Source of the DNA: a virus
Taxonomy: Duplodnaviria > Heunggongvirae > Uroviricota > Caudoviricetes
Direction: 5' to 3' (one strand)
DNA length: 64,000 bases
Virus record (IMG/VR): IMGVR_UViG_3300040801_001810
Location: 102,194-166,193 of that record
Shown: one piece after another, positions 10,001-27,491 of the stretch
Position numbering within the stretch: position 1 is the first letter of the stretch
Layout of the letters: each line of letters opens with the position of its first letter
The notes under the pieces: model-generated
Seen by the model: the letters and a program-made list of their open reading frames with translations, nothing else
What the model was told of the DNA's origin: nothing
The model's database searches: none
Made by a program: the position numbers and the translations under genes

Positions 10001-13000
10001 CTCTTCTGATGATGCTTGTTCTATTTTAGGATCACTAACAGTAGCGGTAGTTATATTCTCTGCATGTTTAAGTACTGTCATTATGTGAGATCTAAGCTTA
10101 GCTATCTGTGCTGCTTGTGCTCCACTCTTTGAGAGTGTTCTAAAGATCTGATCATTTTTTTCTTCAAACTTACCAAGAATACTATTAGCGGCTACTTGAG
10201 ATACAAGATTATTGTTAACAAGTTTTGATCTATAATATTCGTTTATATGTGTATAAACTTCAAAGATTTCTATAAGCGTTTTAATCCTAGCAGCATTTAT
10301 TAAATTGATCTTAGTTAGGTCTTGATTCTCAAATATAATAGATTTACTAGATCCACTAATTCTAGTTTTAAATGATTCAAACTCATAATCCCATGTAGAT
10401 TTATTAGGGGCCTTTTCTCTAGGATTAGCAGCAATGTAAGCATCAATATATTCATTTATTGTATCATTAGTAAACTTTCCATCATCAAGATTATTAGTAG
10501 CTCTAGATAAAACAACTTGTGTATTTTCAAGCTTCTCAATTAATTCTTTTAATGTACCAGCATTAGAAGAGAAAGACTCTTTTAATAAAACATTCTCAAC
10601 TCCATTTTTAATATCTGGATCAAGTTTTTGTGATGCAGATATTAACTCGTCATACTTCTTAATGGATTCAGTGCTTTCAACAAGACTCATCATTGCATGG
10701 AGTTTACCAATTTTAGCATACTTTCCAACAGCAGAAGTAACATAACTTGCTATATCGTACTTACTATCTATTTGATTATATAAGTAAAAATCTGGTGATA
10801 AAAGAACTTCTCCAAATTGTGCTGGTATATCGAAATCTTTATAGCAGTTGACATGCACTTTAGTTTGATTGCTAGTTATTGTATCAATTTTCTTAGAGCC
10901 AAAGATATCTTCTGTGAATAGTTTATTTCTAATAACAGGATCTCTAACAACATCGTTGGCAAGTATACCAGCAATAGATGAATTAAATGATTCGATCATT
11001 CCAACCATAGATGAACCAGCAGTATTAATAACTGCATTCTTAGCAAATTCCCCAGCAAGGTCAATTCCTATTAGTCCTATTGCTCCAATACCAATTAGAG
11101 AAGCAGCAATTATCGGTAATACAGCCGCTCCTGTAAAGAAAAGACCAACTGCAATTCCAATACCAACAGCAGTTCCTTGAGTTCCGATTGAATCTAAGAT
11201 CTTTGTAAATAAAGATTTATTTGGTTGTATCAGATTAATAATAATATCTGCTTGTTGTTCCATTACAGAGTCAAACTTACTAATAATAAATTTAATAATT
11301 TTATCTACTTCTGGATATTCATTAGCAATTTTATTAAGAGCGTTAGTAGCAGTTGCATTAATATCATTAATCATTATTGAAGAACCAAGAATTTCTTTAC
11401 TTTGCTTATCAATAACATTTGCAGCAGCTGCACCAATTACCTCATTAGAAGTAACCTCAGAATTAATTGGTAATTTATTATTCTTAGATAGGGATCTTTT
11501 ATTCTGTGCTTCGGCTATAACCTGGTTAATATAATTGATAACTCTTTTGCCATGAGAAGACAGGAAGAATCTTGATCTAATTATATCGTCAAGACTTGGT
11601 TCTTCTATCTCATCATTATTCACTATACCAAAAGTTTTAACTACGTATCTATTATTTTCTATTTCAGTAGCAGCCAGAAGCTTAGCAAAACTGGTAATCT
11701 GTATATCATCGGATGACTCTTGATCAATTGAGTGATAGTCTTGTATAGTAAATTTAGCCTGAGTTAAACTTAAGTTAGTAGACCACGAGCCTGGCTGTTC
11801 TTGTATATTGGTTGAGTTAGATGTATCATACACAACTTTATCTACACCAAATACTTTGAATACATGATGGAGAGGAACATCAACAATTATTCTACTATCT
11901 AGATATGTTATTAGTTCAGGAGCAGTATATGTAATAATCTTAACAGTCTCTTGTAATCTTTCCGATAATAGAGATAATTTTGTCTTAAGATCTTCTACTT
12001 CATTTGAATTAACTGAAGTTATATTTAGAGACATATTAATATCATCATGTCCGATATGTTGATAATAAGGATATTTATATGCAGACAAAGTTATTGGTAT
12101 AAACTTATTATTAAAAGTAAGAGACCAACTTATAGTTATATCTTTAGCATTATCTATAATAATAGTATCTTCAGTAATAGGTAATCTAAATGTTTTAAAT
12201 GGAGACTCTGCCCCTGGATCAGCTCTAGCTATTACAATACTATCACTAGAACCTACTCCTAGTTCAGTTAGAATTGTCTGTCTTAGATTAAATAAGAAAG
12301 CAGCAAAACTAGATTTTTTATCTTCAACTTCTGCTTTTGATCCTTTTTCTAACCATGCCCAAATCTTATCAATAGCAGCTTGAGCTGTAGTAACACCAGC
12401 TGCATTTTCAATAGGAGTAACGCCTGTCTCATAATGTAATACTCCTCTTAAAAGTCCAGGAACGTCAACAGTATCTTTCTCAAACTTCCCTTGTACTAAA
12501 TCAGTAACCTGATTAAATAGAACTGTGGATTGTTCGAAACCAACTTTTCGTGATAGCCCTCTCATCAACAATCCAAATGTTGATTGAATTGGTTTAGTAG
12601 TATCATCAGAATCTAGTGTAATACCTTGACTGGCTAAGAGAGTCGGTATTATATTATTAAACTGATTAAATTTAACTGATACTTCATTAAAGAAATCTTG
12701 CTTAGTAAGAAAAGTATTAACTATCTGTCTAACCAGACCAGTCTTATCTTGTATCTGATCAAGAGTACTATTTAATTGTTGTAGTGTATCTACTTGAACA
12801 TCAAATCGTTCATTTGATATCTGAGAAGCTATGTCTCTAAAGGATCCATTAAAGTATCTGTACTTAAATTTAATTGGCTTCTTATTATCTTCTGCTTTAT
12901 AGCTATATAGAAAGTTCTCTCTATTATTTGGTCTTAGTTTTTCAAGAGAATATGCATCTTTAATTATTTCTCCATTAGAGAATACTGGGATGTTATTTCC

Positions 13001-14173
13001 ATTCTCATCCTTAACATAATTTCTATCACCAATAAGACTTTGATAGAATGCTCTAAATGGTAAGCTTTCCTTAAAATTTGGTGATCTATCAATAGTAATA
13101 CCTAATACATCTTCTGCTCTCTCTGGTACTACTGATTCGTCATTAAGCTTAGCTTCAGCCTTAGCAAGTAGATCCTTAAGAAATTGATCTTTATACAGAA
13201 TATCTTGTTGATATTTAACATCTTTAAATGTAGCAAGACCTTCGAATGGGCCATTAATAGCTTTAGGATCAAATGGTAGAAAAGTTACCTGAGCTTGAAG
13301 TGTATTAGGAAATCCTTCAACTGATTGTATATGAATACTTTCTAAAGCAACAGATACCCATTGATTAGGCCACGAAGTACCAGAACAGATTTCTTTAAAG
13401 AACGAGCATATATCTTTATTACGAATATTAACAAAAGGAGTTCTCTTAAACATAGCAAACAGATTTAACAATTGATAGTTAATAGAATCTTCATTAGGAA
13501 ATATTAAAGATATAGAAATATTCTTAACCTGTTGCATTGTTGGTATCTTTGGATTACCAGCTGTACGAACAGTAGGAAAATATTGATAACCATTCTGTGT
13601 ATTAAATGATATCTGAGTAGGATCTACTAAAAATCCTAGATCACCAACTTGGAGATAACCGTCTGTTAGCTTTCCAATCTTATCAGATAAGAATCTAGCC
13701 TCATTCTGTCTATCCTCCGCTGATTTATTCTCAGCGGAATTTTCTTTTAATATAGAATTAAGTTCTTCTAAAGAAGTATTATTAATTGAGCTAAGATTTG
13801 GTCTGATAACTCTAAATATTCTAGTTGGATTAGATAATTGTGCTTGATCTTGGGGAGGTAATTCTGGCCACGCATTAAATGTATTATCAGGGAATGTAAT
13901 AGTAACAACATACACTCTATTAGAATGCATGATTATATCGCCAGATCGTAAGTTTCTGACATTAATAGGTTTATCGCCATCAAGATCAACTTTTACTTTA
14001 AGATACTTAGAGTAAGCGATTGGAATTAATGATCTTATAGTCTTAATTTTATTCTGGTTATTTATTTGATTAGCACTAGACTCCGTATTAAACGGATCTT
14101 TTTTAGTTAAAATTAAGTGAAGGGTTGCGCCTAGGTTTTCAGGATTAACAGGCTTTACAACAGCATTATTCAT
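7004..14173 (-). CDS. Giant baseplate hub protein fused to tube-initiator-like modules
   Basis: 2389 aa; hub motifs IKPGTSILIKMGYG, FQGRIIEM, SVWEAMKELC and YQGTIEIIGD..IQPYDILHIDD..GTVEVEEVIHSFTPERGFRTIITP (gp27/gpD-like); two N-terminal tube-fold-like segments. Confidence 0.7.
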   Translation of the reverse strand: MNNAVVKPVNPENLGATLHLILTKKDPFNTESSANQINNQNKIKTIRSLIPIAYSKYLKVKVDLDGDKPINVRNLRSGDIIMHSNRVYVVTITFPDNTFNAWPELPPQDQAQLSNPTRIFRVIRPNLSSINNTSLEELNSILKENSAENKSAEDRQNEARFLSDKIGKLTDGYLQVGDLGFLVDPTQISFNTQNGYQYFPTVRTAGNPKIPTMQQVKNISISLIFPNEDSINYQLLNLFAMFKRTPFVNIRNKDICSFFKEICSGTSWPNQWVSVALESIHIQSVEGFPNTLQAQVTFLPFDPKAINGPFEGLATFKDVKYQQDILYKDQFLKDLLAKAEAKLNDESVVPERAEDVLGITIDRSPNFKESLPFRAFYQSLIGDRNYVKDENGNNIPVFSNGEIIKDAYSLEKLRPNNRENFLYSYKAEDNKKPIKFKYRYFNGSFRDIASQISNERFDVQVDTLQQLNSTLDQIQDKTGLVRQIVNTFLTKQDFFNEVSVKFNQFNNIIPTLLASQGITLDSDDTTKPIQSTFGLLMRGLSRKVGFEQSTVLFNQVTDLVQGKFEKDTVDVPGLLRGVLHYETGVTPIENAAGVTTAQAAIDKIWAWLEKGSKAEVEDKKSSFAAFLFNLRQTILTELGVGSSDSIVIARADPGAESPFKTFRLPITEDTIIIDNAKDITISWSLTFNNKFIPITLSAYKYPYYQHIGHDDINMSLNITSVNSNEVEDLKTKLSLLSERLQETVKIITYTAPELITYLDSRIIVDVPLHHVFKVFGVDKVVYDTSNSTNIQEQPGSWSTNLSLTQAKFTIQDYHSIDQESSDDIQITSFAKLLAATEIENNRYVVKTFGIVNNDEIEEPSLDDIIRSRFFLSSHGKRVINYINQVIAEAQNKRSLSKNNKLPINSEVTSNEVIGAAAANVIDKQSKEILGSSIMINDINATATNALNKIANEYPEVDKIIKFIISKFDSVMEQQADIIINLIQPNKSLFTKILDSIGTQGTAVGIGIAVGLFFTGAAVLPIIAASLIGIGAIGLIGIDLAGEFAKNAVINTAGSSMVGMIESFNSSIAGILANDVVRDPVIRNKLFTEDIFGSKKIDTITSNQTKVHVNCYKDFDIPAQFGEVLLSPDFYLYNQIDSKYDIASYVTSAVGKYAKIGKLHAMMSLVESTESIKKYDELISASQKLDPDIKNGVENVLLKESFSSNAGTLKELIEKLENTQVVLSRATNNLDDGKFTNDTINEYIDAYIAANPREKAPNKSTWDYEFESFKTRISGSSKSIIFENQDLTKINLINAARIKTLIEIFEVYTHINEYYRSKLVNNNLVSQVAANSILGKFEEKNDQIFRTLSKSGAQAAQIAKLRSHIMTVLKHAENITTATVSDPKIEQASSEEKTIIKEIASKMRSGLASSTEENWLSLPDIKNIQSYLYNKIGYYIRLNTFIHEYNLNPTPNLNFDSLPELQFLKFWNFRSKEAADRKTEMLKQFMDQRLKRKDTTIKMFPAFKIYFIEEDKTFYPKNLDDYFSYDAIQSIEIVSNKSSAGKTAIIRLSNVTNTLTDRLSLFRERSDFAGNLNTPSNDDNLFFGTLDIKPGTSILIKMGYGPHDSLLDIAFQGRIIEMTSGPVVELVCQSYGAQLNHHVVAHKFGLLSTTKDHGDVASSILDMIPGLENLGKISTLGSVTHGDFTGRNIKNSRGKLADKFLMSNLLGGATANVFAQDNPRDENIYLPYSHILSKYHKPTFDWVIFDQSVWEAMKELCLYHRDTIPVVRSFNDDRISKKKQYRETLVIGEKSGYYKYTDAFALSSLNIKQIEQSIEQLPSVLNTIKNISLPDNISIASFFTGGLINPLIIKPEYKIVYTYLQKRLNALVLSQHILKNTELAGANDSLMETLSNLLGNNSSLPNAFGETITALLQFAEYSSVDEDDINTFDFKTDKELAKKFSLAVHNLYDLMFANWGPKVNTSLSAEDFYNVKSITDNIDPQLAKDPQYKKIQSHHLISDVTNLISNNIALSSNFANAVNLYYTNEPKLTSARLGDMSDAFISKKLQLWQTKAFGDLRDEHTRPLNSYQKNIDANWFDITKKNDKFFKEFRRIRDEEDSAKKINKYLGSSDKNKDIPNWQYFPSFVMVAVRLLQQEVEKMYQGTIEIIGDTSIQPYDILHIDDRLNDMIGTVEVEEVIHSFTPERGFRTIITPNLVTYDRNPIQLQDVQIINQIYDFYISRKRSQLVFAGVGAGIATAGGISAAGGNFIGGGVGALTGLSIFWNNTVNAYKKNHKFLYDMMGNILGRDCINFTALVYHGVPYVAGFNGVDYTNLKTLMNHNVLGVKSPIARFAAFSDPLKANITTNFNPDEYRGILWSIPGLPFTPEPSENFKSSLLGIVGSIPEAIAGGS

Positions 14174-14176
14174 TTA

Positions 14177-14359
14177 CTATTCCTTTAAGTTTCTTAAAGC
14201 AATTGGGCTTAGTGATAGAGGATCATCTACCTCAATGACATTAATCTTAGTTGGTTTTCCGTTTAACTTTGAGATTTCTCGTTCTAATAAACGTAAATAT
14301 TCTGAATAATCTTGGCCGTCATCGACATTGATTGATATATTTGCTTCAACTACACTCAC
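14177..14359 (-). CDS. Small hypothetical protein (60 aa)
   Basis: GTG start overlapping the TGA of the upstream gene (GTGA), AGGAG SD upstream. Confidence 0.6.
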   Translation of the reverse strand: MSVVEANISINVDDGQDYSEYLRLLEREISKLNGKPTKINVIEVDDPLSLSPIALRNLKE

Positions 14360-17300
14360 AGATCTGCTCTCCTATCTAATTGGGATGAACCAAATTGTGG
14401 TATGTAACTAGTATAGTTCGAATAGTTATTATTTGGAGGACCGAAGAACGCTTGTCTGTTTTGATTTACAGTACCTACTGTATTATCAATCATCCTAGAT
14501 ATAACACTAGATCTCTGTCTCTTATTGTTTCTATTGCTATTTAATCTAATAAATGCCTGTTTAGAGAATGAAGCATCAACCATATCAAGAGGAATATTTC
14601 TATTTAATTCTACTGAGGAGCTAATAGCATTATGCGAACCATCAATATCAACACCAAGATCAGTAAATGCATCTAATGGATTAGCTGAATTAGATAACTG
14701 ATTAGGTTTAAAGAAAGTGGCAGCCATATATATACCAGCAGCAATAGCCCCAACTTTCCCTCCCTTTTTAAAGAAGGATCTAGCATTAGGTGTATCCAGT
14801 TTAAATTTTTTAGATAACTGATCTCCTAACTCTGATACTGCTGATCTAGTAGGTGCTGGTACAGAGAATTTATTCTCTAACATGAAATCCTTCTCAGCAG
14901 CAGATATTATTATATCAGCTATATTTGCATTATCTCTAACTAGATCAATATTATCAAATGATCTTTTCATATCAAATAACTGAGATCCTCTTGGAGCGAT
15001 TTCTTCCATTTCTCTCATTATACCAATAGATTTTTTATAGTAAGATTGTCCTTCATCTGCTCCATACATATCAGTAAATAGATTTTTAAGCGAATTCTTA
15101 TCTTCTCTAGTAGAATTTTTTGGATCTAAGAAGACCTTAGCAGCAGAAGCAAGTCTTCCAAAATCAGCATTAGGATGCTTTGCCAAACTAATAAACGTCT
15201 GGGCAATACCAGCATAACCATGATTTAAGTTGCCCATTAGCGCTTTAGCAGCTACACTATCTTTTCCAATAAGTCCTGCTTGTAATAATTGTCTTGATCT
15301 AGTGTAAGCAACATTTGTCATTAGTCCTATTACATTCTTTGATACCGCAGTATGAGCAACTCTATCCATTTGATTACCAATATACTTTGCAGTAATAACA
15401 TTAGGATTGTGCAGCTGAATAGTCTTAATGTTTTCAGCAAATGATTGAAAGTCATTAGCAAACATTGTCATAGTTTTTTGGGAATTAATATCCATACTCT
15501 TAGTAATAAAATTACCTTGATCATCAAAGCCTCCCATTAAGACTCCATCTTTAGTTCCAGGAGTAATATCCATTAAGAACATCTTCTCTTTTAAACTATC
15601 TCTTAATGATTTAACTACGCCTTGTTTAGCAGAAACTACAGAGTCTAAAGCTTTTCCTAGTGATGCAGAATGTTCTGCACCATAACCCATTAGAGATTCA
15701 GCTGTCTTGAGACCTTTCATTACAAAATACGCAACATCACCATCAAAGTCAGCTCCAAACAACTTAGTATATTGAGCATGTACTTGAGCTTCATTAGCAT
15801 TCATTCCAAGGAACTCACCGACTTCTTGTGGAATTATATTTAACCGCATATCTAGTACAGCATCAGTTGCAGATTGTACGTTAGGATGACGAGTCATATA
15901 TCCATATAGATATTCTTCTCCTCTCATTATACTAGATATTTTACCAGCATTATCTGGTCCAAATACTCGAGCAAGATGTTCAGTAGCTTTAACTACATTA
16001 TTAGCTTTATTAATTTGCATTGGAAGCTCAAAATTTTTAAAGAACGCATCTGTTACATATACATCAGAAAGATTAGATTTAGATGTTAGTCTTTTAATTA
16101 ATTGATTTGCTTGTGTAACGCTTCCTTTAAACTGATCTCCAAAAGTAGCAAATCCTCCACGTCTTTGAATATCTAAAGCCTTTTCAATTATATCTGCCGC
16201 TCCTCTAATAGGTGCTTGAACTCCACGAGGAGCAAGCTCATTAGCTCTAGCATATACAGAAGAAGAATCCATTAAGAATCCTTGATTCATATAGTTTAGA
16301 TATTGTCTCTTTAGAAAACTCTCTGCTGTTCTTACATCAGTTTGTCCTTTACTACCAGATCTCATTTCAGATAGTACAGATTCATAATGTTTAGCTGCTT
16401 CAATAACTTTATACTGTTGTTTATTTCCTTGGCTTAAATATCCAATAGAAAGATCTTTACCATAAGGATTAAGTACATTGTATATATTTTGAGGAGACGT
16501 GTCAGCGTGCATTACTAGTTTACGTAATCTAACAACTTTATTAGTTTCATCTATGCTTTCAACTATTCCTTTACTTGGATCCTTAGCTGAATCATACATA
16601 GTCTTAAACATAGACATCATTTTATTCTCTTGCTGAATCGCCATCTGTGGATCAAGCTCTGAGTTCTTAAGCATGTCAGCTATATGAAATTCAAATGCTC
16701 CTCCAAGTTCTTTCTTAGCAGAATAAGCAAAGACGCCTTTATCCTTAGCCATTGCAGCCCATGACTGTACAGCAGACATTGAAACAAAGTTTTTATTATT
16801 TTCAAATGATTCGGCAAGTTTTGATGTTTGTAATTCATGAATGATTGACTTAACAGCTTTCTCTAAGTCTTCCCCACTTCGACCTTCTTCTGCAAGCATG
16901 GCAGAAACGTGCTGTATCATTTCAGCTTCAGCAGTATCACTATTAATAATTCGTCCAAGCTTATTAAGATCAAGTCTATTAACTCTATCTAATAGTTTAT
17001 TAATATCTTTTATATTAAGTTCCATATTAGAAGTAGAGACTGCTCTAGATAGCAACACATCTTTAAATCTATCCATGGTTCTTCTAGCAGATGCAAATCT
17101 TTTGTCTTTAAGGAATCGTCTACTTGTTTTTAAATCATCAATAGTAGAGCGAGATACATGACCAAAAGGAGTATCTATTAATGAAAGTAAACCCCCACGT
17201 AATTTTAAATCAGTTGGTTTAGGTTGTCTTCCCTTCATTATATTATAAATTGCTCCACGTTGTCTATGTCTGAACCCAGGAATAAAAGGAGAGTCGTCTC

Positions 17301-20300
17301 TATCCGTCCATTTCTGAATTGGTTCTAAGAACATAGGAATCTTAGCTCCTTCATCTATTCTTTTAATATCTGGAAGGAAGTATGTCTTAAGTGTTGGGGT
17401 CATACTTTCTTTTATATTAACTAAGTCGTCTCTATGAAAACTAGATAAGGCTCCTTTTGAATTGCTAAGTGTTGCATCTATATCTTTAGTTGAGTTCCTA
17501 ACTGTTTGATTAATCCAATCTTCAATATTCTTTCTACCAGATTTCATTACATTATCAGAACCAACTGCATCTGAGTCAGCCCACATTCCATACCAGTTCT
17601 GTGCTTTTTGTTTATCCCAAATTATTCCAGCATCAACCATATAACCATTAAGTTTCTCTATAGAAAGATCAATATTACCAATAAATTTCTTAGCAACAGC
17701 AAGTTCTTTTGGATCAGTTATATTCTTAAATTTAATATTAGTCTCTGGATTATGAATAATAACACCACGCTTCTTATCAAAGCTTGAATTAATTTCAGTA
17801 GATATCTTTTTGATTACCTTCTCAGCTCTAGTTTTCTCTGCTTGAGTGCCAGTCTCTGTTTGATCCAAAAGCTTGTCAAATACCTTTTCTATTAAGGCGT
17901 TCTTTTGTGCACCTACATATCCTTTTTCTATAAAGTCTGCTGTAGAAACATGCTCAGCACCACCCATAGCAATTCCAAGAGATAACCATTTATCTACTAC
18001 TCCAGTGCTCTTAGTAAGCAATGATCTATAGTTAAAAGTAACATGATTAAAATCTGAACCAGCTGCTGTAAATAATAGGTTGCCGTGAACTTTAATCTTA
18101 CCAGCTGTATCTCTATCTATCATGACGTTTCTTAATACACCATCTAGTTCAGCTTTAGTAGTAACAAAGCTTTTATCTCCTTGAGCCATAGTTAAACTTG
18201 TGCCTCTAGGAATATCAATAGTTAATCCTTTAGAATCCATATCTGCTTGAACGTCTTTTAGCGCAATATCCCAATGTGATTTTTTAACTGAACCGCCGTC
18301 CAGATCAGCTAGTTCCTTAACTCTTTTTCTAACTCTTCCCTCAAGATCTAGTACTCTTTTACTAAGATGAGGATCCGCAGATGTCCATTGAGCAGAAGTT
18401 AAATCAACATTTTTTTCGATATGAAATTGATGTCTATCAAATACTTTTTGAGAGAAGGCATTATATCCTTCTTGTCCTCTCCAAGAATTAAATACTGATA
18501 CGCTATCTGTCATGATATGATGAGAGAACTCATTCGTCATTGCGTCAGATTTAAGTTTCCATCCAGCGGCATCTATTTCGCCTTGAGAAATAAATGATGG
18601 TCTAAAATACTTTCTATGCATTGCTCTTTTTTCAAGGTCAGTTCTTCCTTTCATAGATTTCATGAATTGGCTGCTTACTCTATTCTTAATACCCATATAA
18701 AACTGATCCCATTGTTTAGTCATTGGGTTATCAGAGTTTGGGATCAAGTGGTTAGGAGAGAACATAGACATAGTTTGTTTAGCTATCTGTCCTTGACCTA
18801 GTAATGATGCAGATGCGAATTCTCCATGAATGGTATATCCTCGTTCTAGATACTTAGCCTCTTCAAAGCTTTCATCAAGACCCATTATTCGTTTACCATC
18901 TAAAAGGAACTTTTGTAGTTCACTAAGATTCTTATATGATTTTTCACCAGATTGAAACTTGTTAATTTCATCGATTAACATCACATTAGTAAATAAACTA
19001 TCAACAACAGGAGAAGCATGTGCTTGAGATAAGAATCCCTTTTGTGCCCAATCAGTAAGCATCTCGTCACCAATTATAATATTACCCTTACGTCTAAAAT
19101 GATCAATAGCTTTTCTTATCTGACCAGGTTTATCAATATTAATTGGATCGGTGCCTTGTCTACCCATCATTCTCATAATAACTTTATTAAGAGCAAGAGA
19201 TCCTTCTCCACCAAATCCTAACTTCTGATAGTATGCTATACTATGAACGTCTATAAATTTTAAATACTTTTGTAATTTAGCCCATGCCTTTGGTGCTTTA
19301 TTCTTTAGCATATGTAGATCAAATTGAGAACCATTCTTAGTAGTAAAGAATACTTTCTTATTGGCAGCTACTGCGGCTTCAACTTGTCTTAGAATAGATT
19401 CACCAATATGTTCAGCAAAATCCATATTATCTTTAAATTTAGGTGCTCCTCTAGATGTTCTAAAGTTCTCAGCTTGTCTTCTAATTTGTTGTCCCCAGGC
19501 TTCTCCTACTTCATCAGGAGTAGTAAGATGAGCAGATTTATCACCAAGTTCACGTCTTAGCCATGAAGCAGTATCTTCTGTCCATCCATACTTTTTCATT
19601 TGATAGTATCCATGATCAGATACAAATTCATCAGCTCCAGTATGAACTAATTTACCATTCTTAAATTCAGACGACACAACTCCTGCTTTAGTTAACTGAG
19701 TATATTCGTCTCGAGCCATCCACTCTGGACCAGGAAGATCTCTAGAGATACTTTCAAAGTCAAACGTAATATTAACTACGTCTTCTCTATTCTTAATAGC
19801 TGTAGCTAGTGTTCCAAGATTTTGCATTGACTCATGAGCATTACCTAATCTAAGTAACTGATTCTTAGTAAATTTACTTTCTGTAACAAGTCTACCTGCT
19901 TTGAACGAGTCTCTAATAGTGCCCTCAGCTAATGGGGAATCTTCTAGAAGATTATTCATTGAAAAATGTATTCTTCTAATAGCTTTATCAGGATTAATAG
20001 AAAATTCGTTTTCCATCATATTACTATCAAGAATATCATTTAGTGCTCTAATCATCTGTTGTGATTTATTTTCGATATCCTCATTTATTCTAAGATCTTT
20101 ACCAAGAGAATGTTTTTTGTTAAGACGTCTAATGGCGTCTCCTTCTGTCTTTAGATAGAAACCATCTAACATCTCTGTTACGCTTGGAGTTGATCCTGGA
20201 ATTCTACCATGTTGAGCAAGAGGAATCTCAGTTGAGAACCGCCCCTTCGTATTATGTTCAAATGAAACTTTAGCATAATACTTAGGATCAGTGGCGCTAC

Positions 20301-21408
20301 CTTTAGTTATAATTTCAAATCCAACATCTTTAATTTGAGTATCAGCCGCTCTTGTAGTCTTTAAATCATTTAGCTTATCGCTTAACTTCTTTAATCCAGC
20401 AGTATAATCAAATTGACTTAATAATCTAAATCTTTTATTATCAGGAACAAAAGCCACTCTATTTAATGAGCCTGATGTAATTTTATTATTATCTTGTGCT
20501 AGAAGATCAAACGCATTAACTCCTTTAACAGAATGTTTATTATAACCTTGACCAATTCTCTGTGAATATACCTTTTGCCTAGCAACTGAAAGATGTGTTG
20601 AATCAAACTCTTCGCCACCATATAAGAAGCTTCTTACATTTGTTTCCGTAAAAGTTTGAGTAGTAGGATTAGCATCATAAGCATTCTTAGCCATAGAATA
20701 AGAGGATTTCATTCTATTTAGTCTTCTTTGATAAAGATTAGCATAGGAAGAATCATATTCTAAATAATATTCATGTAAAGCTTTTAATCGAGTCTTATCA
20801 GAAGCAGGAGATTTAATAGAATGTAAAGTAGCTACGTCTTCTTCTCTAGCAGCAGACTCTCTCGCAAAGTGCTCGTATAATGTGCTTTCTCTGAGGGTAA
20901 ATAGAATGTCATCTCTATCAACAGTTACATCAACAGCTGGCTTAAGTGGATATCTGGATCCTTTAGGAGTTCTAACAGCTCCACGAGCAAATCCAAGATC
21001 CTCTTCTGTTCTAGATATAATTGAGTCTTCTGCTCTCTTAACATAATTAATATATGATACGTCTTTCATTTCAGCCATATCAAATTTAGTAGCAGTGTCC
21101 ATATCCAAAACATCATCCAAAGATCGTTGAGTTTCTTCATCAATATCAATACCAAAATAAGGTTGCTTAAGGGAAGCAGATTCGCTGATGATTCTTTCTC
21201 TTGAATCAAATTGTTTCATTGCTTCTCTAGAAACTATCTTATTTTTATATTGATCTAGGTACTTTAATGCCAATCTTCCAGTTGGGCCTTTAATCTTATA
21301 TGCACCAAAAGCCATACCAGTTAAGGCTCCAAGTTTCATAAAGGTATTAAATGTCCAGTGACCTTTATCAACATCTTCTTTTTTAAATGGATTATAAATA
21401 TCAGCCAT
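14356..21408 (-). CDS. Putative virion single-chain two-barrel DNA-dependent RNA polymerase with DEDDh exonuclease domain
   Basis: 2350 aa; TRHP (aa ~1840) and GADFDGD (A1886-D1891, nt 15736-15753); downstream VIGLMTN and QTFISLAKH; N-terminal DFE (550-552), NGSQFD (D697), IDVHSIA, AHASPVVD (H797, D803). Confidence 0.8.
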   Translation of the reverse strand: MADIYNPFKKEDVDKGHWTFNTFMKLGALTGMAFGAYKIKGPTGRLALKYLDQYKNKIVSREAMKQFDSRERIISESASLKQPYFGIDIDEETQRSLDDVLDMDTATKFDMAEMKDVSYINYVKRAEDSIISRTEEDLGFARGAVRTPKGSRYPLKPAVDVTVDRDDILFTLRESTLYEHFARESAAREEDVATLHSIKSPASDKTRLKALHEYYLEYDSSYANLYQRRLNRMKSSYSMAKNAYDANPTTQTFTETNVRSFLYGGEEFDSTHLSVARQKVYSQRIGQGYNKHSVKGVNAFDLLAQDNNKITSGSLNRVAFVPDNKRFRLLSQFDYTAGLKKLSDKLNDLKTTRAADTQIKDVGFEIITKGSATDPKYYAKVSFEHNTKGRFSTEIPLAQHGRIPGSTPSVTEMLDGFYLKTEGDAIRRLNKKHSLGKDLRINEDIENKSQQMIRALNDILDSNMMENEFSINPDKAIRRIHFSMNNLLEDSPLAEGTIRDSFKAGRLVTESKFTKNQLLRLGNAHESMQNLGTLATAIKNREDVVNITFDFESISRDLPGPEWMARDEYTQLTKAGVVSSEFKNGKLVHTGADEFVSDHGYYQMKKYGWTEDTASWLRRELGDKSAHLTTPDEVGEAWGQQIRRQAENFRTSRGAPKFKDNMDFAEHIGESILRQVEAAVAANKKVFFTTKNGSQFDLHMLKNKAPKAWAKLQKYLKFIDVHSIAYYQKLGFGGEGSLALNKVIMRMMGRQGTDPINIDKPGQIRKAIDHFRRKGNIIIGDEMLTDWAQKGFLSQAHASPVVDSLFTNVMLIDEINKFQSGEKSYKNLSELQKFLLDGKRIMGLDESFEEAKYLERGYTIHGEFASASLLGQGQIAKQTMSMFSPNHLIPNSDNPMTKQWDQFYMGIKNRVSSQFMKSMKGRTDLEKRAMHRKYFRPSFISQGEIDAAGWKLKSDAMTNEFSHHIMTDSVSVFNSWRGQEGYNAFSQKVFDRHQFHIEKNVDLTSAQWTSADPHLSKRVLDLEGRVRKRVKELADLDGGSVKKSHWDIALKDVQADMDSKGLTIDIPRGTSLTMAQGDKSFVTTKAELDGVLRNVMIDRDTAGKIKVHGNLLFTAAGSDFNHVTFNYRSLLTKSTGVVDKWLSLGIAMGGAEHVSTADFIEKGYVGAQKNALIEKVFDKLLDQTETGTQAEKTRAEKVIKKISTEINSSFDKKRGVIIHNPETNIKFKNITDPKELAVAKKFIGNIDLSIEKLNGYMVDAGIIWDKQKAQNWYGMWADSDAVGSDNVMKSGRKNIEDWINQTVRNSTKDIDATLSNSKGALSSFHRDDLVNIKESMTPTLKTYFLPDIKRIDEGAKIPMFLEPIQKWTDRDDSPFIPGFRHRQRGAIYNIMKGRQPKPTDLKLRGGLLSLIDTPFGHVSRSTIDDLKTSRRFLKDKRFASARRTMDRFKDVLLSRAVSTSNMELNIKDINKLLDRVNRLDLNKLGRIINSDTAEAEMIQHVSAMLAEEGRSGEDLEKAVKSIIHELQTSKLAESFENNKNFVSMSAVQSWAAMAKDKGVFAYSAKKELGGAFEFHIADMLKNSELDPQMAIQQENKMMSMFKTMYDSAKDPSKGIVESIDETNKVVRLRKLVMHADTSPQNIYNVLNPYGKDLSIGYLSQGNKQQYKVIEAAKHYESVLSEMRSGSKGQTDVRTAESFLKRQYLNYMNQGFLMDSSSVYARANELAPRGVQAPIRGAADIIEKALDIQRRGGFATFGDQFKGSVTQANQLIKRLTSKSNLSDVYVTDAFFKNFELPMQINKANNVVKATEHLARVFGPDNAGKISSIMRGEEYLYGYMTRHPNVQSATDAVLDMRLNIIPQEVGEFLGMNANEAQVHAQYTKLFGADFDGDVAYFVMKGLKTAESLMGYGAEHSASLGKALDSVVSAKQGVVKSLRDSLKEKMFLMDITPGTKDGVLMGGFDDQGNFITKSMDINSQKTMTMFANDFQSFAENIKTIQLHNPNVITAKYIGNQMDRVAHTAVSKNVIGLMTNVAYTRSRQLLQAGLIGKDSVAAKALMGNLNHGYAGIAQTFISLAKHPNADFGRLASAAKVFLDPKNSTREDKNSLKNLFTDMYGADEGQSYYKKSIGIMREMEEIAPRGSQLFDMKRSFDNIDLVRDNANIADIIISAAEKDFMLENKFSVPAPTRSAVSELGDQLSKKFKLDTPNARSFFKKGGKVGAIAAGIYMAATFFKPNQLSNSANPLDAFTDLGVDIDGSHNAISSSVELNRNIPLDMVDASFSKQAFIRLNSNRNNKRQRSSVISRMIDNTVGTVNQNRQAFFGPPNNNYSNYTSYIPQFGSSQLDRRADL

Positions 21409-24400
21409 TATAAATTAAACTTCTTTCTTACATCAAAGGCTCTAGATATAGTAAGAGATCTATCTCTTCTAATTGTTACATTAATAACATTTGCATCACT
21501 AGCTCCATTATTAATATAGACCATAGCGTTAGATTTAATGCCATTCTGTCTAAATAGATTATTTATTATCCCTCTAACGTGACCAGAACTTAAGTTCGGA
21601 GTTTCCATAGGAACTTCATTCATATCAGCTGCTTGTATCTCTCGATCAAATCCTTGCATTCTAAGCATTTGTTCATTCCAACCAAGCCCAAATTCATGTG
21701 CATCAAAACCTTGTTCCTGTATAGTTTTTAATTCGATATCTTCTAACTGGACGCCTGGGTCAAGAACGCTTCTATTAAATACATGTCTTCTATCAACCGA
21801 TATTCCTTTACTTGTATTCTCTACAAAAGCACCAGTTGCTTCTTTTTGATCACTAGCATTCCATTGTTTCTTAAGAGCGGCCCCTAAGTCAGAAGGAAGT
21901 ACACTAAGAATTTCTTTTCGTTCTCTTGGATTTCTAGTATTTAAGAATGATTCTATATATGGTTTCTCAGTAAAAGGAGTTGCTCTAAATAGATCAGCTA
22001 CATTTCCTTCGCCTTGATTAATAGAAGTTAGGGTTGATCTTCTTGCATCCATAAACTTCTTCTGAGTTAATCCCGATGATAATTGTGTCAACATATCAGC
22101 TTTAGCATATTTAGCTGCGTCAAAGTATGAAACTATATCACGCTTTTCTTGAATACTATTTGGAATATATTTTGAACCAGTCGCAAATCTATAAAGTCCA
22201 TGAACTGTTCCATATGCAGTACCTAACCCAGCACCTATAACTGTACCTAATGGTCCACCTAATACAAAACCTCCTGTACCATAAGAAATGCTTCCTGCTA
22301 GGGGGTCAGTCTTTGAAGCGAGTCCTCTTGAGTATGGTTCTACAAATGAGCTAATTGGTTCATCCCATGGCTTGTATTCTTTACCATATAATCTAGTCAT
22401 CTTATAATGTTCTATTGGATCTTTCATTCCAAATAGTTTATTAGTAAGCAAGAAATTAGTATTAGTAAAATTCTCCCAAGCCCAACCAATTGCTCTTTCC
22501 TTTAAACTATAATCCGCTCCAGCTTTAATATCTTCATTAATAGATTGTATATTCTTTTGAGTATCAGGAGTTAATAGTTTCCCTTTGAATCTATTTGGAT
22601 ATAATTCGTATTTACGTAATCTAGCCTGTCTTTTCTTAAGGGCGAATTTATATCTATTTACTTCTTTTTCAGTAAGGACACCAAATTTGATTTGCTTCTC
22701 TACAAGAGTTTTAACTTCTTTATACTCTTTAGAAGTAGGAGCAACGTCAGCTAGAATATCAAGTCTGTCTATCCAGGAATAACTATATCCATAATTATCT
22801 TCGACGCCCTCATCTAGCATTGATTGAGCTGTTTGTCTCGCTTTTTGTAGCTTTGCTAAATCTTTTTCCCATCTATTCCTACTATAATTGACTTCAAATA
22901 ATTTAGTCATCGTAGGATTATCTCTATTTATATATAAGATATTACCCTTATTAAGTCCAAGTTCTTTCAGATAAAAGTTAATCTGGCCAACGTGCTGATA
23001 CTTAGGTCCTTCAGCTAGTTTCTGAAATCCTGCATCATTGATAGATTTAATTTCTAGTGCTCTACGACCTTTACCTCCTTTACCATCTCTAATAACAGCA
23101 TCTACGTGACCAGTAATGTCGTTCTTAATATCAAATACTAGAGCTTCTGCCTGAATTAATAATCCTTCAGCTGCTAGTGAGTCTTGAATAGCAGCGTGCA
23201 TTTCAGTTCCTTCTTCCATTATATCAAACGATTCTTTTAATGTAGGAGTTATCATACCTGTAAAGTACTCTAGTATCTGTGGTTCATTAGCTCCCAACAT
23301 AGATGCTCTAGCAGGCATTGTTCTTCTTAAAGTTGTATGTGTCTTAGAGTAAGCTTCTCCAGGTAATCTAAGTTCTCCTCTTAGAATCTTTTCATAAGGA
23401 TCACCAGAAAGGAATTGAGCTGGTAACCAGTTAGGCATTAAGTTAGGAATAGGATTAATTCCGTATTGCTTATACTCAGGTTTGTCTATTAATCTTCTGA
23501 TAGGCTCAGTTAAGAATCCCATACCACCAAGATTCTTATCATAAAAACTTCTACTCATAGAAGCAATTCTACCAGCTGTCTGTAAAGTAGGCATTACAGC
23601 AGGTTCACCAAATACTCTTTCAGTAATACTTCTACCTAGGAATCCTTTTAGTCCAGCAAATTGCGAAACGTCATATAAGAAATCTTCTGCTGCTGTCTCA
23701 GACCAATTCTTATTTGGCATTATATTTACAGTCCCACCAGCCGTAGCTATTCCTGTTGTGCTTCTAATCTGAGACTGATTCCTCATTAAACCAAGACCTT
23801 CCCCTAAAGTAGGAGGTCTTATTGCGAATGGATATGGATCACCTGCTCCACCAGCTTTAATTGCATCTGAAGTTAAGAACTCTTGATGCATAGTCTTCTG
23901 AGGTTTAATTATTCTACCAATAGTTGCTGATAAAGGTTTACCAATGATTGGCATCTCATCGAATATGCCGCCAGTTACTGGATATGGTCTGCTAAAGAAG
24001 TGCTTACGCTCCATATAATAAGGGTCAACTAAGTCGCCTACATTAAATCCTATAAATGGCAAAGGCTCATGTATTAATTTTCGAAAAGCGGATCCATATT
24101 TTGTATCAGTCTCTTGCCATCTTGACTTAGCTCTTACATACCAGTTTGGAGACCAACCTATAACTTTAGATCCTTCCCACGGAGTTCCACCAAGTAACCA
24201 TGTTGGTGATTTCATCATTGGGACTTCTGCTCTACCAGCATAAATTTCTGTAAGTTCCTGATGACTCTTAGTCATATCTGGAATATAAGGAGAGGCCAGT
24301 CTATTAACTATAGCTCCAGTTAATACTCCCTTAGCTACTCCAAGTGCTCCTCTACCAGTAATCATACTAGAAAGGCCACCAACTATCATACCAGGAAGAG

Positions 24401-27400
24401 TGCTTTCAGAACCAGGAGCGAGACCATGCATATATTTCATCATGCCTGTAACACCTGTCACATCTGAAGCTCTTGCTAATCCTAGTCTACCTTTAGCAAC
24501 GACATCAGCACCAAAACCAGTTAAACCTTCATCAAAAGAAGTATCATCAAATAGAGGATTAGTTGCAATTAAAGTGTCAGCTACTTTGTATGAACCAAAT
24601 GCTAAAGCTGTGGTAGACATTATACCACCAATAAATTTAGCGCCTCCCATTAATCCGTGATGTGAAATATATCTTTTCTTAAATGGCAACCACTCTGATA
24701 TCATATCAGTAGTTGAAGTCATTGTCTTTCCAAGAACATCACTCATTGCTCTTAAGCCAGTAGGAGCAGAGAAGTAAGGAGATGTACCACCAGATAAATC
24801 AGATGGATCGAATTCTGCATCTTTAAGAATTCCCCCCATAATTCTATTCTGTTCAAAGTCAATCTTTGGATTTTTAATTCTATTATTAGAAACAAAATCT
24901 ATTATCTCATTTCCAACATCCCACTGTTCTTCTTTGGCTCTATGTCTAACCTTTTTTAATACGCTAGAAAAAGTGTCAGACGACTTAGCTATGTTTCTAA
25001 CAAGACCGTCATCTCTAAACACAGATAGCTTAGCGTGTAACTTAAGAGCTTTAGCTTCTTTATTGGTAATAATTCCTTGTTCTAATAATCCTGGGACCGC
25101 TGCTATTAATGGGTGTGCTTCTCCTGGTCTAGGATTAGTCAAATAAGATTTATTAAATATATCATCTATATAATTAGTTCTAGCTACATCCATGGATGTC
25201 ATAGATGAAAGTGGACCTAGTCTTTTAACAACTTCGTGTGTCTGCGATTCTTTTGGAAATGCTTTGACTTCTTCTACTGCTCTTTTAAAACCAGTTCTTT
25301 TAATCCAGTCACCAGCTCTCCAATCAAGACTATCTAATTTATCTACTAGCGCACGATCATCAAAAGCTACGTTTAAAATATCATCTGCTAGTGTTTTATC
25401 GTGGACAAAATGAGCTATCTGTTGAAGCGCATTCTTATTTTGTAGAACTCTAGATTGTACTTGAGATGTATGAGTTAATAGATTATCTAATAATGGTAAA
25501 TGTTTTTCTCCATCTAAAATATTACCATTGCCAAATATATCAGCGGATAGTTGTTGGTAATGTTTATTTCCACTTAATCTAGCATCAATATTTCCAAGCA
25601 TTTCATTTAGCTTGGAAGGTAGTCCAATATTTCTTCTATCTAGAAAGTGTAAGAATGTATTTTTAGGACTATCATAATAGTCAACTTGTTCTCTGATCTT
25701 ATTAAAGTCAGATCCAGCGTCCATTGCTGCATCACGTAATCTATTAATTGCTAAGCTTTTAAGTTCATAGCTCTTATCTCTTGAAGCTCGAGGAGCACGA
25801 TATAGTTTTCTTTTAGAATCAACTTCTCTAATACCTTCACCATCAAAAATAGCCCACTTACCATTAGCATACATGAAAGAAGCGTCTTTACCACGAGCCA
25901 ATTCTCCAATAGATCCATTACCAAATTGAAATTCAGGCTTTCTATCAAAGAACTCAAATGAAGGAGCTTCAGATAAATACTTGCCAGCTCCTGTTAGTTC
26001 AGATAAAGTAAAATTCATAGATGATAGTGGAATATGGAATCTCTTATTAGCTATCCATGAGGCCCCTCTTCTCATAACATGAATAGGATCAAATGCTCCA
26101 AGATCTACACCAGCACCCTTAGCTTTACCACCACGCCAATCTCTATAGATATTATTTCCAACACGCATGTTAAGAACATTACCCATTAGAGTTTCTGCGG
26201 TTTTATTACCATATCTTTCAGATAGTGTTCCTTGTGTTCTTCTTATCCAGTCTTCATTAATAACATCTTTATTACGTAATGGTTCTAAGAAACCAAATAC
26301 TTTATTAATAAATGATTTTTGATTAGCTTGTCTCTTAAGCTCAGGAATAAAATGATCTGATAATCCATTAGAAGCTAGTGATGCTTGGCTTCCTACATTT
26401 GACATAGAAGCTACTTTATCAAGTGCTTCTATAGCTCTAAGACCAGAGTATTTAATAGTAGAAGATGGAGTAACTCTATCTTTAGCACCCATCTCTTTAA
26501 CATTTTTAAGAGCAGCATTAATAGTACTAAATGCTTTTTTAGTACGTTGGCCAAAGGACCCCTTAGATCTCCATGCTTCTTTTGCAGCGTCAGGTAATGT
26601 ATATAACGCAGATTGTACACTTCTGTACTTATCTCTAATACTTTTTCCTGCTTCTAAGAAGGATAATCCCTTCTTAACCATATCAGAAGCAACCTTAGTT
26701 TCCTGCTTACTTCTTAGTTCTCCAACGACATCTTGTTTAAGGTATTTCTCATATCTAGCTCCTCTAGGTATACCAGGGGAGTTAGGAGCCATCCTAGCTG
26801 CCAGAGACCTTCCCATAGCTCCACCAAAGGCTTTGGATGCACTACGCATACCAATACTGCCTATAGCTCCAAGTCCTCTCTGTGCGCCCCCAAAGGCCAA
26901 TCCAGCAATAGAGTCATTAACCATCCATCTACCAAAGTTAGATATCTGACCAGGAACGTCGTACCATGATTTTTTCTCGAGACCCATATCTTTAGAGATA
27001 CCAAGCATTGAGTCTACTGCGTAAGCTACTCCCATACCAGATAATACGTTTTGTTTCCAAACGCTACCAACTGAGGCTATAAATGTCTTTGGGTTTTTGA
27101 ATGCTGAAGTAAATCTAGCAGCGCCATAACCAGGCTTACCTTTCATACCAGCAAGAGACTGCATTCTAGTGGTATGTGCTTGCCCAATAGATGTTTTACT
27201 AATGGCCCTCTTAATATCAGACTTAGCTTGATTTACTGTACTAGTTACACTATACGCCCTCTGGGCAATTTGTTTTCTAATACCAGATGGGCGGTTCATC
27301 CATTTCTTAACTATTCCCCCACCAGATTTAGAAAGTCTATGGGTAATAGCTCCACCAATTAAGTTTAATCCACCAATAAGTGCTATAGACTTAATAGCCT

Positions 27401-27491
27401 GGGCAGCACCCTGCATTGGATTACCCTCATTCCTTACATTATCATAAGGATTATAATAGGAGTCGTTACTATCGGGATTATAAATTGCCAT
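21408..27491 (-). CDS. Tape-measure-like protein with embedded PD-(D/E)XK nuclease domain
   Basis: 2027 aa; directly follows the tail chaperones; basic, Gly/Ala-rich, several glycine-zipper hydrophobic segments; GTEMHAAIQ..GHVD..LEIKS..QINFY nuclease motifs at aa ~1425-1545. Confidence 0.7.
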   Translation of the reverse strand: MAIYNPDSNDSYYNPYDNVRNEGNPMQGAAQAIKSIALIGGLNLIGGAITHRLSKSGGGIVKKWMNRPSGIRKQIAQRAYSVTSTVNQAKSDIKRAISKTSIGQAHTTRMQSLAGMKGKPGYGAARFTSAFKNPKTFIASVGSVWKQNVLSGMGVAYAVDSMLGISKDMGLEKKSWYDVPGQISNFGRWMVNDSIAGLAFGGAQRGLGAIGSIGMRSASKAFGGAMGRSLAARMAPNSPGIPRGARYEKYLKQDVVGELRSKQETKVASDMVKKGLSFLEAGKSIRDKYRSVQSALYTLPDAAKEAWRSKGSFGQRTKKAFSTINAALKNVKEMGAKDRVTPSSTIKYSGLRAIEALDKVASMSNVGSQASLASNGLSDHFIPELKRQANQKSFINKVFGFLEPLRNKDVINEDWIRRTQGTLSERYGNKTAETLMGNVLNMRVGNNIYRDWRGGKAKGAGVDLGAFDPIHVMRRGASWIANKRFHIPLSSMNFTLSELTGAGKYLSEAPSFEFFDRKPEFQFGNGSIGELARGKDASFMYANGKWAIFDGEGIREVDSKRKLYRAPRASRDKSYELKSLAINRLRDAAMDAGSDFNKIREQVDYYDSPKNTFLHFLDRRNIGLPSKLNEMLGNIDARLSGNKHYQQLSADIFGNGNILDGEKHLPLLDNLLTHTSQVQSRVLQNKNALQQIAHFVHDKTLADDILNVAFDDRALVDKLDSLDWRAGDWIKRTGFKRAVEEVKAFPKESQTHEVVKRLGPLSSMTSMDVARTNYIDDIFNKSYLTNPRPGEAHPLIAAVPGLLEQGIITNKEAKALKLHAKLSVFRDDGLVRNIAKSSDTFSSVLKKVRHRAKEEQWDVGNEIIDFVSNNRIKNPKIDFEQNRIMGGILKDAEFDPSDLSGGTSPYFSAPTGLRAMSDVLGKTMTSTTDMISEWLPFKKRYISHHGLMGGAKFIGGIMSTTALAFGSYKVADTLIATNPLFDDTSFDEGLTGFGADVVAKGRLGLARASDVTGVTGMMKYMHGLAPGSESTLPGMIVGGLSSMITGRGALGVAKGVLTGAIVNRLASPYIPDMTKSHQELTEIYAGRAEVPMMKSPTWLLGGTPWEGSKVIGWSPNWYVRAKSRWQETDTKYGSAFRKLIHEPLPFIGFNVGDLVDPYYMERKHFFSRPYPVTGGIFDEMPIIGKPLSATIGRIIKPQKTMHQEFLTSDAIKAGGAGDPYPFAIRPPTLGEGLGLMRNQSQIRSTTGIATAGGTVNIMPNKNWSETAAEDFLYDVSQFAGLKGFLGRSITERVFGEPAVMPTLQTAGRIASMSRSFYDKNLGGMGFLTEPIRRLIDKPEYKQYGINPIPNLMPNWLPAQFLSGDPYEKILRGELRLPGEAYSKTHTTLRRTMPARASMLGANEPQILEYFTGMITPTLKESFDIMEEGTEMHAAIQDSLAAEGLLIQAEALVFDIKNDITGHVDAVIRDGKGGKGRRALEIKSINDAGFQKLAEGPKYQHVGQINFYLKELGLNKGNILYINRDNPTMTKLFEVNYSRNRWEKDLAKLQKARQTAQSMLDEGVEDNYGYSYSWIDRLDILADVAPTSKEYKEVKTLVEKQIKFGVLTEKEVNRYKFALKKRQARLRKYELYPNRFKGKLLTPDTQKNIQSINEDIKAGADYSLKERAIGWAWENFTNTNFLLTNKLFGMKDPIEHYKMTRLYGKEYKPWDEPISSFVEPYSRGLASKTDPLAGSISYGTGGFVLGGPLGTVIGAGLGTAYGTVHGLYRFATGSKYIPNSIQEKRDIVSYFDAAKYAKADMLTQLSSGLTQKKFMDARRSTLTSINQGEGNVADLFRATPFTEKPYIESFLNTRNPRERKEILSVLPSDLGAALKKQWNASDQKEATGAFVENTSKGISVDRRHVFNRSVLDPGVQLEDIELKTIQEQGFDAHEFGLGWNEQMLRMQGFDREIQAADMNEVPMETPNLSSGHVRGIINNLFRQNGIKSNAMVYINNGASDANVINVTIRRDRSLTISRAFDVRKKFNL

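Follow-up and report, generated by a model that had tools for sequence, protein, structure and literature searches.

Within the 230,193-bp virus record IMGVR_UViG_3300040801_001810 of IMG/VR, we analysed a stretch of 64,000 nucleotides (G000:C1 102194-166193, referred to as the window in the rest of the text) that contains a minus-strand open reading frame (ORF) of 2,350 amino acids (aa), P0001. From its N- to its C-terminus, the predicted product carries a putative DEDDh 3′-5′ exonuclease domain, a predicted single-chain two-barrel RNA polymerase (RNAP) and a short conserved module (Table 1). A first-pass annotation, made from the letters and their translations, had proposed that an exonuclease of the DnaQ/RNase T type is built into a putative RNAP, on the basis of five motifs in canonical order. 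All five were found at the residues it gave in the 2,350-aa ORF.

Table 1. Features of P0001, with positions in the window.
Feature	Residues	Window position	Strand	Basis or remark
Whole gene P0001, giant tail-module protein	1-2350	14356..21408	-	ORF list and translation
DEDDh (DnaQ-like) 3′-5′ exonuclease domain (predicted)	~540-815	18964..19791	-	AF2 model, Foldseek, VIA
ExoI motif ITFDFES (D550, E552), strand beta1	547-553	19750..19770	-	both invariant in 33 homologues
Helical insertion of ~80 aa between beta3 and beta4	~599-681	19366..19614	-	four helices, model residues 80-162
ExoII motif TKNGSQFDLHML (D697), helix start after beta4	690-701	19306..19341	-	D697 invariant
FIDVHSIA (D720)	718-725	19234..19257	-	D720 invariant, end of beta5
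SLAL	737-740	19189-19200	-	motif position in translation
ExoIII motif AHASPVVDSLFT (H797, D803)	796-807	18988..19023	-	H-x5-D spacing
Single-chain two-barrel RNAP region (predicted)	1020-2160	14929..18351	-	AF2, Foldseek, VIA
TRHPN, R-x-P element of beta′-like double-psi barrel (R1840, P1842)		15880..15894	-	conservation
DFDGD metal-binding motif (D1887, D1889, D1891)		15736..15750	-	invariant in 31 full-length homologues
C-terminal conserved module	2195-2300	14509..14826	-	53% mean column identity

The AlphaFold2 (AF2) model of residues 520-840 reached a mean predicted local distance difference test score (pLDDT) of 94.1 and a predicted template modelling score (pTM) of 0.92. AF2, VIA and Foldseek agree on the five-stranded RNase H-like alpha/beta fold of the DnaQ-like superfamily, with elements in the order beta1-beta2-beta3, four helices, beta4, a helix, beta5 and further helices, and with strands at model residues 25-35, 52-64, 67-77, 166-171 and 199-201. 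Foldseek against the PDB ranked RNase T and oligoribonuclease first (E = 4e-5, probability 1.0), followed by TREX2, ExoI, DinG, epsilon and the exonuclease domains of B-family polymerases. In the Swiss-Prot AlphaFold library only RNase T was matched, and the BFVD matches consisted exclusively of viral DEDD exonucleases and PolB exonuclease domains. The best 50 VIA rows were likewise all DEDD exonucleases (Z 12.9-11.4, TREX1/2 and DinG included), with ExoI at Z 12.9 (root-mean-square deviation 3.3 Å over 178 aa), the DnaQ domain of Cas2-DEDDh (8h18) at Z 12.5 (166/172 residues) and Pol III epsilon (2ido_C) at Z 11.9 (170/175 residues). The RNase H-like fold, whose absence the first-pass annotation had named as the outcome that would speak against its proposal, is thus predicted in a confident model for which every match is a DEDD exonuclease. 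Fold, strand order and motif placement are those of DnaQ-like DEDDh enzymes, although solved DEDDh domains cover only ~166-190 of the 321 residues of the model in the VIA alignments. Compared to classical members, the domain has an ~80-aa four-helix insertion, which widens the ExoI-ExoII spacing to 145 aa, extra helices before ExoIII and an H-x5-D motif. While DEDDh enzymes occur free or within DNA polymerases, this one is embedded in a giant tail-module protein.

To gather homologues, an exhaustive HMMER search was run with residues 520-840 as the query. It returned 32 cluster representatives, nearly all of them ~2,250-2,430 aa long and matching at the same relative position. In the resulting 33-sequence alignment of the exonuclease domain, the mean column identity is 29% and only six columns are invariant: D550, E552, D697, D720, H797 and D803. 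They comprise the DEDDh catalytic residues and the Asp that closes strand 5, and the five catalytic residues are also invariant in a 31-sequence full-length alignment. Near D697 in ExoII, conservation reaches at least 90% at K691 and G693. We take D720, from inspection, to resemble the 'D-T/S' motif that follows beta5 in E. coli DnaQ and RNase T. The DEDDh signature is intact and under strong purifying selection, and since no other columns are invariant, selection acts on the putative active site and not on the scaffold. In the model, D550 and E552 sit at the end of beta1, D697 opens the helix after beta4, D720 ends beta5, H797 lies just ahead of the last long helix and D803 inside it. That invariant residues fall on the expected elements of an independently predicted DnaQ-like fold is more than chance would give. 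The predicted structure thus supports the assignment of residues ~540-815 to a DnaQ-like DEDDh exonuclease fold, and the proposed correspondence of the motifs to ExoI, ExoII and ExoIII holds in both the alignment and the model.

For the polymerase part, the AF2 model of residues 1020-2160 had a pLDDT of 83.8 and a pTM of 0.79. Foldseek returned 400 PDB matches at E ≤ 1e-3, the top 50 of which were all RNAP largest subunits. VIA ranked single-chain two-barrel enzymes first, with QDE-1 at Z 11.3 ahead of Pol IV NRPD1 and RDR2. Gp62 and gp64 of phage P74 followed at Z 10.6, and the bacterial beta′, Rpb1 and African swine fever virus (ASFV) enzymes ranked lower (Z ~8.5-9). All VIA rows, from Z 11.3 to 8.5, which are moderate values for a model of 1,141 residues, are RNAPs or RNA-dependent RNA polymerases (RdRPs) of the two-barrel superfamily. 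The alignments of these top-ranked single-chain enzymes span both barrels (QDE-1 over model residues 94-1136), and single-chain RNAPs align from model residue ~94 onward. ADFDGD lies 44 residues past TRHPN, so that the R-x-P and DxDxD elements of the beta′-type barrel are both present; R1840 is 90% and P1842 100% conserved among the 31 full-length homologues. The only RNAP matches in PDB profile searches were weak (E ~1) and fell exactly on the NADFDGD segment of bacterial beta′. K1133, K1162 and K1169, which are at least 90% conserved in the same full-length alignment, are candidates for the lysines of the beta-type barrel, as judged from their conservation. Because the family of structural matches is uniform and the motif set invariant, we consider the assignment of the C-terminal half of P0001 to a putative two-barrel RNAP to be well supported. 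The fusion of the exonuclease to an RNAP, as first proposed from the letters, is supported by the conservation of R-x-P and DxDxD and by structural matches to RNAPs alone.

The combination of a polymerase with a DEDD exonuclease is a hallmark of replicative DNA polymerases, and archaeal PolD makes DNA with a two-barrel core. P0001 could by this logic be a DNA polymerase or primer-extending enzyme with the DEDDh domain as its classical proofreader. We regard this as very improbable, since the top 50 Foldseek and VIA matches are all RNA polymerases, no PolD chain occurs among the 50 matches listed for the polymerase model, and the gene lies in a tail operon instead of a replication module. Outside the window, the phage encodes an 820-aa B-family DNA polymerase with an exonuclease domain (G000:C1:42277-44739) and an 807-aa fused DnaG-type primase/DnaB-type helicase (G000:C1:50529-52952). 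The complete PolB, which has an exonuclease domain as well, and the primase-helicase argue that the DEDDh domain is not a replicative proofreader, a role that we rejected for this reason, and make it unlikely that the two-barrel enzyme is a DNA replicase.

The first-pass annotation had called for a survey of how often homologous phage RNAPs carry the exonuclease, and every relative that we found carries both modules: the 32 representatives, six IMG/VR loci and the proteins of Bacillus phages Edson and vB_BauM_KLEB27-3. The six loci were retrieved by searching IMG/VR with the C-terminal module (residues 2195-2300), which is unrelated to either enzyme domain. Their ORFs (2,258-2,441 aa) match the exonuclease profile in 6/6 cases (E from 3e-30 to 6e-92) and the polymerase profile in all six as well. 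The exonuclease always stands N-terminal to the polymerase. A k-mer homologue search with the polymerase segment gave close relatives only, and tblastn with P0001 found nothing in 50,697 phage records. The polymerase profile, in contrast, reached a 2,515-aa "hypothetical protein" of Edson. Its counterparts are "virion structural protein_gp095" of vB_BceM_WH1, which is 94% identical to that of Edson, and the "structural protein" gp034 of KLEB27-3, which is 27% identical to it.

The Edson and KLEB27-3 proteins are not detected by the exonuclease profile. They were reached via the polymerase profile and their motifs were then read in the sequences, while WH1 was assessed by its identity to Edson. 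In Edson and KLEB27-3, respectively, we read FFDIEN and VYDTEI for ExoI, GGQNINTYDIPFM and GYNVHNFDQPMM for ExoII, SFDTLS and QVDAFS for the Asp that follows beta5, and THMALQD and AHFGLSD for ExoIII, here with the H-x4-D spacing. All of these lie at ~aa 105-375, upstream of the polymerase motifs, which are NRYPT in both phages for R-x-P, and ADHDGD and ADYDGD for the metal-binding motif. The fusion thus extends to relatives whose exonuclease domains have no detectable sequence similarity to that of P0001.

Conservation in the P0001 family is highest in the C-terminal module and not in an enzyme domain. It consists of a Gly/Ala-rich hydrophobic helix followed by the motifs NPLDAFxDLG and LDMVNASFSK. 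It is probably an anchor to the tail lumen or a membrane; a processing site is a possible alternative. Bacillus phage Edson has its gene in the same arrangement of three giant genes, an order shared by KLEB27-3 and 0305phi8-36, and the flanking giants gp145 and gp147 of 0305phi8-36 are homologous to those of Edson. According to its record, gp146, the product of the middle gene of 0305phi8-36, was detected in virions by mass spectrometry; it is annotated as a hypothetical tape measure. Its similarity to the Edson protein is confined to the last ~160 residues. Since gp146 lacks the enzymes and keeps the C-terminus, the slot seems to exchange its cargo while retaining a C-terminal anchor. Phage 0305phi8-36 is reported to have a separate YonO-like RNAP (PMC7824862; PMC2919709).

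The surroundings of P0001 in the window form a contractile-tail structural module with all genes on the minus strand. Portal, major-capsid-like and tail sheath genes lie upstream, and the order runs sheath, tube-like genes, a 185-aa ORF, a 2,027-aa giant, P0001 and a 2,389-aa giant. P0001 is thereby placed past the sheath, tube-like and chaperone-like genes and ahead of the hub, flanked by a tape-measure-like (2,027 aa) and a hub/endolysin-like (2,389 aa) protein in a three-giant-gene block that spans window positions 7004-27491 on the minus strand. P0001 shares this proximity to a tape-measure gene with tail-delivered RNAPs of the gp96 type. Gp96 of Thermus phage P23-45, a precedent, is a virion two-barrel RNAP fused to the tape measure, for which a role in pre-early transcription while the DNA enters the cell has been proposed (Chaban et al. 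2024, PMC10770324). P23-45 also has two non-virion RNAPs, gp64 and gp62, structures of which match the polymerase model at Z 10.6. Like P0001, gp96 is encoded in the tape-measure region of the tail module, has its two barrels in a single chain and contains a DFDGD motif. It differs in forming the N-terminus of the tape measure itself, whereas P0001 is a separate gene beside a tape-measure-like protein, and P23-45 is a siphovirus whereas the phage studied here has a sheath gene and hence a contractile tail. Gp96 is absent from the 50 VIA rows listed for the polymerase model. By analogy with gp96, together with the virion record of gp146 and the fact that the homologues in WH1 and KLEB27-3 are annotated as structural proteins, we infer that P0001 is carried in the tail and ejected.

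We propose, with a probability of about 0.6, that P0001 represents a family of ~2,300-aa tail-module proteins with a two-barrel RNAP in the C-terminal half, of which a catalytically competent two-metal DEDDh exonuclease, acting in cis on 3′ ends, is a fixed module. Catalytic activity, packaging into the virion and ejection, the substrate and coupling to transcription are the inferred parts of this proposal. Proofreading, resection of DNA ends and destruction of host nucleic acid, which the first-pass annotation had listed as possible roles, are speculative. P0001 would probably travel in the tail beside the tape-measure-like protein, would be ejected with the DNA and would then start phage transcription, the exonuclease most likely working in cis for the polymerase on 3′ ends. 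In the version that we prefer, the exonuclease would trim the 3′ end of the nascent or backtracked RNA, or abortive products, so that the few injected polymerases, lacking host Gre-type factors, could restart instead of stalling. This version is tentative and takes a minor share of the total probability. We rank it as we do because of the strict linkage of the two modules, the few molecules per infection and the weak leaning of Foldseek toward RNase T/Orn. In its narrower form, in which the two-barrel RNAP would use the attached DEDDh domain on its own transcript for proofreading or backtrack rescue, it seems to us rather unlikely. To our knowledge, all studied RNAPs of the two-barrel superfamily use Gre/TFIIS-assisted cleavage, from which such transcript trimming would differ. 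It would be the DNA-phage counterpart of the coronavirus nsp14-RdRp arrangement, in which the DEDDh exonuclease ExoN of nsp14 is associated with an RdRP. We know of no other well-established case of exonucleolytic proofreading of RNA synthesis. The likeness is functional only, since the coronavirus system combines a right-hand RdRp with separate subunits, whereas P0001 would combine a two-barrel enzyme and its exonuclease in one chain.

Several observations weigh against the proposal. As far as we know, the active site of multisubunit-type RNAPs itself ordinarily cleaves off backtracked RNA, and we know of no DNA-dependent RNAP that employs a separate exonuclease. DNA and RNA exonucleases are mixed within one Z unit among the top structural matches. 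Neither DxDGD nor the exonuclease motifs occur in gp146, so that 0305phi8-36 does without both modules in this slot and they are not a universal requirement. The canonical H-x4-D of ExoIII is replaced by H797-x5-D803; the spacing of one residue over the usual, already pointed out in the first-pass annotation, appears in hhalign as a one-residue gap relative to E. coli RNase T and to an alignment of five E. coli DEDDh enzymes. Sequence profiles did not recover the domain. The profile search that had been suggested as a check was negative, with no match of Pfam RNase_T (PF00929) in P0001 at E ≤ 10, and the same profile found nothing at E ≤ 10 in the six-frame translation of the genome, compared to matches in 13/14 control genomes. 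Neither PHROGs nor Pfam gave a relevant match on whole P0001 or on residues 500-860, no exonuclease turned up when the PDB was searched by sequence or by profile, starting from the protein or from three alignments, and hhalign comparisons with E. coli RNase T, DnaQ and the five-enzyme DEDDh set were short and non-significant, with segments restricted to ExoIII or the post-beta5 motif. In these non-significant alignments, QAHASPVVD of P0001 was paired with QAH-SALYD of RNase T, and HSIAYYQK..SLA, just past D720, with DSLAVARK..SLD of DnaQ. The domain thus differs from DnaQ-like DEDDh members in having no detectable sequence-profile similarity to them, and given the negative Pfam check its support comes from structure prediction and conservation.

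The lack of profile matches to exonuclease families, the large insertion and the altered H-x5-D could also be read as the marks of a structural relic that has lost catalysis and serves as a spacer or packing module. A relic would hardly be expected to keep its catalytic residues, alone in the domain, unchanged in 33 sequences whose mean identity is 29%, or to share the same five residues with Edson and KLEB27-3, which are themselves 27% identical. This is the signature of selection on catalysis, and we give loss of activity very little credence.

The exonuclease could instead take DNA as its substrate. It would then resect the 3′ strand of the entering phage DNA, possibly together with the nuclease of the neighbouring protein, and thereby expose a single-stranded DNA template or promoter for an RNAP that prefers such DNA, or ready the ends for annealing or circularisation. 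The 2,027-aa giant (window positions 21408-27491, minus strand) has a Cas4/PD-(D/E)xK nuclease-type match at aa ~1423-1556, with PHROG matches to phrog_1706 (E = 1.2e-15) and phrog_1990 (E = 4.7e-09), so that two different nuclease domains lie on adjacent proteins of the tail-lumen type. This Cas4/RecB-like neighbour fits end processing, as do the nearest polymerase matches QDE-1, RDR2 and Pol IV-type, which are single-stranded-template enzymes, and the many matches of the exonuclease to DNA exonucleases fused to DNA-handling machines (ExoI, TREX1/2, epsilon, Cas2-DEDDh and DinG). The polarity is difficult to reconcile with it, since 3′-5′ digestion from the entering end would remove the template strand of an inward-moving RNAP. 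The terminal repeat of the record, 117 bp in length, looks like an assembly overlap and not like real genome ends; so short a repeat suggests a circular or permuted assembly as opposed to true direct terminal repeats. On balance we consider end processing doubtful.

Alternatively, the exonuclease may be an injected weapon that degrades host or competitor nucleic acid at entry, be it host DNA or RNA, plasmids, defence RNAs or signalling oligonucleotides, with the polymerase as a mere ejected carrier. The 2,389-aa giant (window positions 7004-14173, minus strand) has an endolysin-type match (phrog_20474, E = 2.7e-42, aa ~1986-2196) and is paralleled by gp147 of 0305phi8-36, an annotated endolysin with peptidoglycan-degrading domains. 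With a PD-(D/E)xK nuclease on one ejected-type neighbour and an endolysin-like domain on the other, the giant tail-lumen proteins here seem to act as cargo carriers, which suits a weapon, and RNase T/Orn-like enzymes, the top Foldseek matches, degrade short oligonucleotides. Accessory weapons are usually sporadic, whereas the exonuclease and the polymerase co-occur in every relative found, with the exonuclease always on the N-terminal side, and one or a few molecules per infection would presumably make a poor bulk nuclease. A weapon is therefore improbable in our estimate.

The exonuclease, in our preferred reading a partner of the polymerase in cis, would add to what has been described for injected RNAPs. 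Such enzymes let phages start transcription independently of the host, and we know of three unrelated solutions in which an RNAP is delivered from the tail or capsid, those of N4, crAss-like phages and P23-45. Virion-type two-barrel RNAPs are themselves already known, so that the P0001 fusion is not categorically new; what is new is a virion-type two-barrel RNAP with a conserved exonuclease module, a combination that we did not find described for any DNA-dependent RNAP. The first-pass annotation knew of no characterised two-barrel RNAP with a fused DEDDh domain, and our full-text literature search likewise found no paper describing one. The words exonuclease and nuclease are absent from the P23-45 paper and its supplementary survey of viral two-barrel RNAPs (PMC10770324), the 2010 review of two-barrel enzymes (PMC2919709) makes no mention of an exonuclease fusion, and the term DEDDh, the sole term looked for, is absent from the 2021 jumbo-phage overview (PMC7824862). 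Members of the YonO/QDE-1-like clade, which includes the virion RNAP of crAss-like phages, have both double-psi barrels in one chain, as does P0001. Unlike it, they have no described exonuclease domain in the literature examined, and sequence similarity between them and P0001 is limited to the metal-binding motif.

Judging from its sequences, the P0001 family would add a contractile-tailed jumbo-phage lineage in which the polymerase is always paired with an apparently active exonuclease. Editing or rescue of transcripts by the nuclease, if it occurs, would be a new form of quality control in transcription; preparation of a DNA end would explain how such polymerases reach their template. Standard libraries such as Pfam and PHROGs miss both enzyme domains of the family, and the homologous genes are annotated in GenBank as hypothetical or structural proteins (3 records). 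A PF00623 hidden Markov model run over the whole phage genome gave no match, no second RNAP-like gene was found in the whole genome, and none of the three modules of P0001 has a paralogue elsewhere in it.

Outside the modules described above, ~700 residues of P0001 (aa 1-520 and ~840-1020) have no assignment. Pfam and PHROGs were empty over both segments, and a feature search of the ESM Atlas gave no usable match for aa 1-520. The N-terminus contains a hydrophobic helix around aa 23-38. A Pfam scan of the neighbouring giants and of the small tail genes gave no matches. Along the genome, a long plus-strand block gives way to ~100 kb of structural genes on the minus strand, in which the window lies, and these in turn to another plus-strand block. 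The TerL of the phage is distantly related to that of Bacillus jumbo myoviruses. The fusion is also present in the cultured Bacillus phages Edson, vB_BceM_WH1 and vB_BauM_KLEB27-3, in which the role of the exonuclease can be addressed directly by experiment.

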